From Escherichia coli (GTDB lineage Bacteria; Pseudomonadota; Gammaproteobacteria; Enterobacterales; Enterobacteriaceae): a DNA stretch of 64,000 nt. A model generated the notes under the pieces. The model had not been told where the DNA came from. It was given only the letters and a program-made list of their open reading frames with translations, and ran no database searches. A program made the translations under genes and the position numbers. Shown piece by piece: positions 31,414 to 31,689 of the stretch. The number at the start of each line of letters is the position of its first letter. Within the stretch, counting starts at the first letter, position 1. Location of the stretch: assembly GCF_003018235.1 (NCBI RefSeq), contig NZ_CP027437.1, one strand, 5' to 3'.

Positions 31414-31689
31414 ATGAACTGCGTGCTCAGAGTTACCACTTCAGCGCATAACCGTGGCAGCAGACCCGGACAGAACAAACGGCTCAGGACATTATCGGTA
31501 GGGGACGTACTGGTAGTATGGAAACTGAACCGACTGGGGCGCAGTATGCGGCATCTTGCCGTGCTGTTGGAGGAGCTGTGCGAACGTGGTATTAACTTTC
31601 GTGCTCTGACTCTACCAATATTTGCCCAACAATGGGGGGACGAAAGCTGTAAAAGTAAAACAATCTGCAATCTCAATGTTATTGTGTGA
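31414..31689 (+). pseudogene. pinH: Remnant of a Pin/Hin-type serine DNA invertase (pinH-like fragment)
   Basis: 91-aa ORF with resolvase-like VLVVWKLNRLGRSMRHLAVLLEELCERGINFRALT but no N-terminal catalytic Ser region or C-terminal HTH. Confidence 0.65.

Follow-up and report, generated by a model that had tools for sequence, protein, structure and literature searches.

The window, by which we mean the whole stretch of DNA analysed here (64,000 nucleotides of contig NZ_CP027437.1 from Escherichia coli), contains a low-GC interval between the tRNA-Ile(CAU) gene ileY and the tmRNA gene ssrA, and within it an open reading frame of 91 codons (31414-31689, plus strand) that the initial annotation took for a decayed serine invertase. 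The ileY gene, at 28870-28945, has the anticodon CAT and is named as such in the orthologous K-12 and VCSW7 records; ssrA lies on the minus strand at 36756-37118 and is recognised both by ARAGORN and by the Rfam tmRNA model (295 bits). Apart from tmRNA and tRNA, Rfam returns nothing in 28-38 kb. Going from ileY towards ssrA one meets ypjC/ypjB (29697-31115), a series of short element-derived sequences, the reading frame itself and the autotransporter gene ypjA. The low GC that had been remarked on holds up, at 0.39-0.43 in the region of the invertase fragment versus roughly 0.50-0.55 in the core flanks.

The invertase homology is secure. The frame matches the Pfam Resolvase family PF00239 (E=3.5e-11; 43.8 bits, the cut-off being 23.3) over residues 10-66 of the frame and profile positions 43-100 of 145, and residues 39-91 of PinE from the cryptic prophage e14 align by tblastn to 31453-31611 on the plus strand with 40/53 identities (75% at the amino acid level). 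We refer to this piece as pin'. At the DNA level the homology runs over 31462-31610. There pin' shares 82.6% identity with K-12 pinE and 85.3% with pinE from an e14-like phage (83-85% for the two over residues 39-91), 76% with a Fels-2-like prophage invertase, and 67% with Fin, the invertase of phage LLS. All of its close DNA matches are annotated as DNA invertases, and by descent it belongs to the Pin/Hin/Gin/Cin invertase subfamily, the Din family, nearer to invertases than to Tn3 resolvases. A chance resolvase match, conceivable for a stretch of only 53 residues, is ruled out by the Pfam E-value of 3.5e-11 together with 82-85% nucleotide identity over 150 bp. That a serine-invertase fragment is present, as the initial annotation proposed from the sequence alone, is thus established far beyond chance, and its caution that a formal search might reveal no significant similarity to serine recombinases can be laid aside.

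The fragment is an already catalogued E. coli pseudogene, pinH, which RefSeq annotates as a partial recombinase. In the K-12 MG1655 record the orthologous stretch is the pseudogene pinH (b2648), corresponding by alignment to 31449-31688 of the window, and RefSeq gives the orthologue in the nearest strain, VCSW7, as an incomplete 'recombinase family protein' missing its N-terminus and C-terminus; VCSW7 was isolated from soil. The K-12 copy likewise sits between ypjB/ypjC and ypjA, shares both the 5' junction with an IS3-like fragment and the 3' end of the window copy, and is 94% identical to it over 1 kb around pinH. The window copy is the better kept of the two, retaining the 40/53 identities to PinE, whereas K-12 pinH has acquired extra substitutions, for example W to C and R to W.

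Only the central part of the invertase gene survives, again as first described. Between 31100 and 32100, tblastn finds no remnant in any frame of PinE residues 1-38, which hold the catalytic Ser10 and the 'YVRVST' motif, nor of residues 92-184, which hold helix E and the helix-turn-helix (HTH); all other HSPs have E>0.1. PinE of e14, by comparison, is a protein of 184 residues that includes Ser10 and an HTH, and its gene has flanking pix sites spaced by 1.8 kb; pinH has none of these features. We scanned 28-38 kb for pix-type crossover sites, with shuffled sequence for comparison and the e14 pix sites, which were recovered, as a control: the best matches carry 9-11 mismatches of 26, no better than the shuffles, and a repeat search found no relevant inverted repeats. 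The flanking inverted-repeat recombination sites that the initial annotation suggested looking for are therefore not found in 28-38 kb, and because no crossover sites remain, nothing here is now invertible; the proposal of an invertible element does not hold. In the Hin, Gin and Cin systems the Fis-dependent recombinational enhancer sits within the 5' part of the invertase gene. With roughly the first 41 codons of pin' deleted, the enhancer region is presumably mostly or wholly gone as well. Lacking the catalytic serine, the C-terminal HTH with helix E and any pair of crossover sites, pinH cannot recombine DNA. Judged by its sequence, what is left amounts to 150 bp from the interior of a PinE-type invertase gene (codons ~42-91 of ~184), a relic without function.

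The frame in which pin' is embedded is an accidental one and not a gene. Only ~150 of its 276 bases are resolvase-derived: it is a chimera of out-of-frame IS3 sequence, in-frame pin', a linker and the upstream module of ypjA. Its first ~48 bases (~16 codons, the ATG included) belong to IS3-like orfB, translated here in the wrong frame. On the 3' side the homology to the invertase ends at 31611, and the last ~50 bases fall within the ypjA/ycgV-type upstream module; since sequence paralogous to the ymgJ-ycgV locus begins at ~31640, the last codons are accidental too. The IS3-like sequence is an internal fragment of orfB/InsF at 31372-31462 on the plus strand, 82.8% identical to positions ~528-619 of K-12 IS3A over 93 bp (E=9e-19), and tblastn matches 14/18 of InsF residues 64-81 in a frame different from that of the reading frame. 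It abuts pin' directly, being joined to invertase codon ~42 with no spacer. The element is far from complete: ~91 bp are left (InsF residues ~58-88), with no match to InsE and with both IS ends missing. We read this fragment as a deletion scar. In E. coli ML35 (L008, 9049-10277) an intact IS3-family element stands right after ypjCB and links it to ehaB, truncated and derived from a distant locus; this is an independent IS3-mediated rearrangement at the same spot as the IS3 fragment of the window.

We aligned nine orthologues to follow the decay of the frame. The ATG at 31414 is AAG in both K-12 and O145:H28, a frameshift interrupts the frame in the KOr021 orthologue, substitutions fall on conserved resolvase residues (W to C, R to W), and between the window and K-12 pinH there are 15 nonsynonymous and 2 synonymous codon differences (~7:1). 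The pinH orthologues thus drift neutrally. It could still be argued that the frame is expressed and functional, for example as a dimerisation-domain peptide interfering with PinE, PinQ or PinR, or as part of ypjA regulation, given that it is open in this strain, that it lies upstream of ypjA, and that the segment kept includes the 'VWKLDRLGRS' core, which is conserved, and some of the region before helix E. A start codon absent from K-12 and O145:H28, a frame broken in KOr021, the excess of nonsynonymous over synonymous change of about 7:1, termini that are chance readings of IS3 and ypjA-upstream DNA, and the lack of any sigma-70-like promoter on the plus strand between 31050 and 32100 make this highly improbable.

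The larger setting of pin' is a block of 5.5 kb, containing pin' and ypjA, that is bounded on one side by ssrA and on the other by a remnant of the ssrA 3' end. This remnant, a decayed direct repeat at 31271-31285 (minus strand) that represents the distal att site, pairs with 36756-36770 (CCGCCAGCT-CACCAA in the remnant, CCGCCAGCTCCACCAA in ssrA); one base is deleted here, and the decay is worse in other strains. The block thus shows the marks of an element integrated at ssrA, namely the ssrA 3' direct repeat and element-specific arms beside the att cores, and it is a non-mobile remnant because no integrase gene is left: between 31286 and 36755 there is no integrase ORF, and apart from short spacers the interval holds only pin' and the ypjA cassette. 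The window is colinear with K-12 minus CP4-57, and K-12 psaA (the attR of CP4-57) aligns to the ssrA 3' end of the window; this strain, unlike K-12, carries no CP4-57, so ssrA directly adjoins the pinH-ypjA block. The neighbouring tRNA to which the initial annotation had tied the element is not its anchor, as ileY and ypjCB both lie outside the repeat-bounded block, beyond the ssrA remnant; the anchor is the tmRNA gene.

Three different kinds of element end lie against the two copies of the ssrA 3' end. Directly downstream of ssrA, at 36601-36755 on the minus strand, is an attP arm of the type found in phages phiNP, LLS and Ayreon, with two hairpins. The interval 36601-36801 is 88.7% identical to Escherichia phage LLS over 195 bp (E=1e-67), a match that takes in the 'tmRNA pseudogene' and attP annotated in the LLS record and the 155-bp arm beside them; the arm also matches positions 35-142 of the genome of Citrobacter phage phiNP at 88%, and Ayreon as well. 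Integration of phiNP in the 25-bp 3' end of ssrA, including that of K-12, has been demonstrated experimentally (PMC6456863). At the far end of the block, abutting the ssrA remnant at 31286-31347 (minus strand), is the right end of a CP4-57-like island of the kind with a P4-type integrase. Together with the remnant, this sequence (31271-31347) is 74% identical over 77 bp to the CP4-57 right end plus psaA of K-12 (E=6e-8), att core included, and the two share the motif ACCAATTCAGAC-N-CCGCCAGC-N-CACCAA. A tandem stack of elements at ssrA is a further likeness to CP4-57; its integrase and other genes have left nothing in the window.

On the other side of the remnant, at 31210-31270 on the minus strand, is the attP arm of a Fels-2-type phage of the P2 family, with an intrinsic-terminator hairpin at 31236-31263 (12-bp stem). 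The stretch 31210-31285 is 97.4% identical to the sequence right after ssrA in E. coli GDAR2-2, where it is the start of an intact P2-like prophage; the arm recurs at 93-98% in SopEPhi, RE2010, SEN8, Cartapus, 500465-1 and Klebsiella and Cronobacter phages, and the Fels-2 record annotates it as 'part of prophage attP'. Our first reading of the hairpin and the ssrA remnant, as the native ssrA terminator moved by one island, was dropped because the arm is the attP arm of Fels-2-like phages in four genera and stands beside the intact prophage of GDAR2-2. In a strain free of CP4-57, such as this one, the DNA right downstream of ssrA, with its likely terminator hairpins, is a phage attP arm and not native sequence; the last element to integrate provides the 3' flank of ssrA. 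GDAR2-2 itself (L009, 12397-40077; L007) carries a tandem array at ssrA, made up of the intact Fels-2-like prophage with its invertase and invertible tail fibres, a 45-bp ssrA 3' repeat, and a P4-like satellite with SIR2/ATPase genes of defence type; beyond this array, ileY-ypjCB has been lost through a deletion by an IS3 element.

Between pin' and the phage arm lies the ypjA cassette (31640-36605, plus strand), which consists of an upstream module and the gene (32029-36596) and is a paralogue of the ymgJ-ycgV locus. The upstream module (31640-31998) is 88-89% identical to the ymgJ/ycgV upstream region, and 36300-36602/36605 is 94-97% identical to the 3' end of the ycgV-locus autotransporter. 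The paralogy therefore extends from 390 bp upstream of ypjA to just beyond its stop codon: it begins at ~31640, 29 bp past pin', and ends at ~36602-36605, just after the ypjA stop at ~36596, so that the cassette fits exactly between pin' and the arm that begins at 36601. From this likeness, the two autotransporter loci would be related by duplication or by gene conversion. The small annotated ORF at 31844-31963 is also matched by one upstream of ycgV. In this strain ypjA is a pseudogene: the G run at 32464 has lost one base (G6 here, G7 in VCSW7), which shifts the frame, and a premature TAG stands at 36473-36475, some 40 codons ahead of the native stop.

The genes ypjC and ypjB stand apart. 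They are fused as ypjCB (DUF5507 + DUF5508) in other strains; here there is a nonsense codon at position 116 (30042-30044; Leu in VCSW7), and in K-12 the split is of another kind, a ~156-bp deletion giving ypjC + ypjB. The GC of ypjCB is very low, at 30-36%. A tblastn search of 50,697 phage records found no YpjCB homologue, and as ypjCB lies outside the block and lacks a phage homologue, its arrival together with pinH is unsupported. The suggestion that ypjC and ypjA came in on one mobile element thus survives in part: the locus is a mobile-element relic and ypjA lies inside the repeat-bounded block, but ypjC does not.

The decayed architecture is widespread in E. coli. The full arrangement of arm, ssrA remnant, CP4-57-like end, IS3 fragment and start of pin' is found in 3040 of 5426 complete E. 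coli genomes, K-12, O157:H7 and O55:H7 among them, at 88-99.7% identity. All carriers share the decayed form, and no more complete version of the element was seen in these genomes; partial matches are due to IS3-mediated deletions (ML35) or to other elements at ssrA (GDAR2-2, CT01). An exact-pattern search for the IS3/pin junction in 100,044 species-representative genomes returned only one 2.8-kb contig of a metagenome-assembled genome, the Firmicutes bin 'Planococcaceae bacterium UBA3370' (L019, DEQI01000374.1); this contig is most likely E. coli contamination of the bin. The remnant can accordingly be called ancient, as had been proposed, only within E. coli; its exact junction was not found in the representatives of other species. 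The pinH-ypjA block is ~6% diverged from K-12, compared with 1.7% for the adjacent core genes: 26707-36770 (ygaQ-ileY-ypjCB-pinH-ypjA) is 93.5-94% identical to K-12 and 36755-40711 (ssrA-smpB-recN) is 98.3% identical. This would indicate either faster drift of the whole low-GC region or a divergent allele in this lineage.

PinE-type invertases flip tail-fibre segments in temperate phages, and the order of genes in phage LLS offers a candidate source for pin'. In the orientation of the window, LLS has an invertible tail fibre (with annotated IR-L/IR-R), the invertase Fin on the plus strand, ~3.2 kb of accessory genes, the arm, the tmRNA fragment with attP, and int. The window has pin' on the plus strand, the ypjA cassette, the arm, and ssrA on the minus strand; the two are colinear and in the same orientation, and the arms are ~88% identical. 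They differ in that the accessory slot holds ~3.2 kb of genes in LLS and a 5-kb ycgV-like autotransporter cassette in the window, and in that Fin is just 59% identical to pin' at the amino acid level and 67% at the nucleotide level. The phages phiNP and Ayreon likewise have tail fibres, accessory genes and the arm but no invertase. The tail module of phiNP is syntenic with that of e14-like phages at 30-48% amino acid identity, and other members of that group have pinE right after the tail-fibre genes; the pinE closest to pin' is carried by pA16EC0305-2, a fragment of an e14-like phage that offers no informative att region. The closest intact genes, the e14-like pinE genes, are tied to the attP arm only through distantly related syntenic tail modules. 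On colinearity and orientation rather than sequence, the probable source of pin' is the tail-fibre invertase of a temperate phage of phiNP/LLS type that had integrated at ssrA.

Two of the elements whose ends are preserved here compete with this assignment. Fels-2-like phages, which likewise use ssrA as their integration site, have a Pin-type invertase (70% amino acid and 76% nucleotide identity to pin') beside an invertible tail-fibre segment, so pin' could derive from such a prophage, of the same family as the arm at 31210-31270, instead of from a phiNP/LLS-like one. The proximity of that arm, just ~190 bp away, the orientation of the GDAR2-2 invertase relative to ssrA, which is that of pin', and nucleotide matches of 75-80% between these invertases and pin' all speak for it. 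The Fels-2/SopEPhi-type attP arm, terminator hairpin included, is 97% identical to 31210-31285. The topology is the difficulty. The intact prophage of GDAR2-2 reads ssrA, arm, ogr ... invertase ... int and 45-bp ssrA repeat, with the invertase ssrA-distal of the arm, whereas pin' is ssrA-proximal of both the arm and the ssrA remnant and is separated from them by the CP4-57-like end; what such a phage has left here is just the ~60-bp arm, with the ssrA remnant lying between it and pin'. Since pin' is not colinear with the prophage behind that arm, a second Fels-2-like integration would be needed, and e14-like pinE is in any case closer to pin' (85% vs 76% nucleotide identity). We regard a Fels-2-like source as rather unlikely.

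The other candidate is the CP4-57-like island whose end is preserved at 31286-31347: pin' would be its native cargo, a single island having brought ypjA and a serine recombinase together. In favour of this reading, pin' lies within ~115 bp of the island end and the whole block is contained between ssrA and one ssrA repeat, and CP4-type islands do commonly carry autotransporters, such as flu on CP4-44. Nevertheless, the ssrA-proximal end of the block is an LLS/phiNP-type attP arm and not a P4-type integrase end, the CP4-57 of K-12 has no invertase, the close relatives of pin' are all phage tail-fibre invertases, and the IS3 fragment parts pin' from the island end, indicating a deletion junction between them. 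An origin as island cargo is for these reasons distinctly unlikely.

With a phiNP/LLS-like phage as the probable source of pin', the locus can be arranged into a layered history, in which the order of integration is inferred from position only. The oldest layer would be a Fels-2-like phage of the P2 family that entered ssrA and left its attP arm and terminator (31210-31270). A CP4-57-like island would then have integrated, leaving its right end and att remnant (31271-31347), followed by a phiNP/LLS-like temperate phage with the order tail fibres, invertase, accessory genes, arm and attP. Of this last phage there would remain the arm next to ssrA (36601-36755) and the invertase fragment, whose order and orientation are still those of the phage, and the place of the accessory genes between the two would be taken by the ypjA cassette, a ycgV paralogue. 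Most likely this invertase acted on a tail-fibre inversion segment of the phage that has since been deleted. Deletions would have removed all else, one of them leaving the IS3-like fragment fused to invertase codon 42, and in K-12 CP4-57 would have been added later, between ssrA and the pinH-ypjA block.

As a whole, the explanation that best fits the locus, and one that is very probably right, is that pinH is a dead PinE-type relic amid a stack of wrecked elements integrated at ssrA. The observation in the initial annotation is confirmed and its interpretation partly supported. More tentatively, the 5.9 kb from ypjCB to ssrA may be a stratigraphy of at least three ssrA integrations (Fels-2-like, CP4-57-like, and the phiNP/LLS-like one that gave pinH), with ypjA a copy of the chromosomal ycgV locus captured by, or recombined into, the accessory slot of the phage and then retained when the phage was deleted.

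In itself pinH, a catalogued pseudogene without function, matters little, and its modest value is for annotation: the frame at 31414-31689 should not be called a protein, and it is ssrA and not ileY that matters as integration target. The ssrA 3' remnant, which is unannotated, and the arms of three different elements account for the position of ypjA, and because of these arms the flank of ssrA in CP4-57-free strains is phage-derived and not a 'native' terminator, which bears on work on tmRNA levels after CP4-57 excision (PMC10107115). If the stratigraphy reading is true, the locus would show concretely how the remnant of a prophage has fixed a duplicated adhesin gene of the host.
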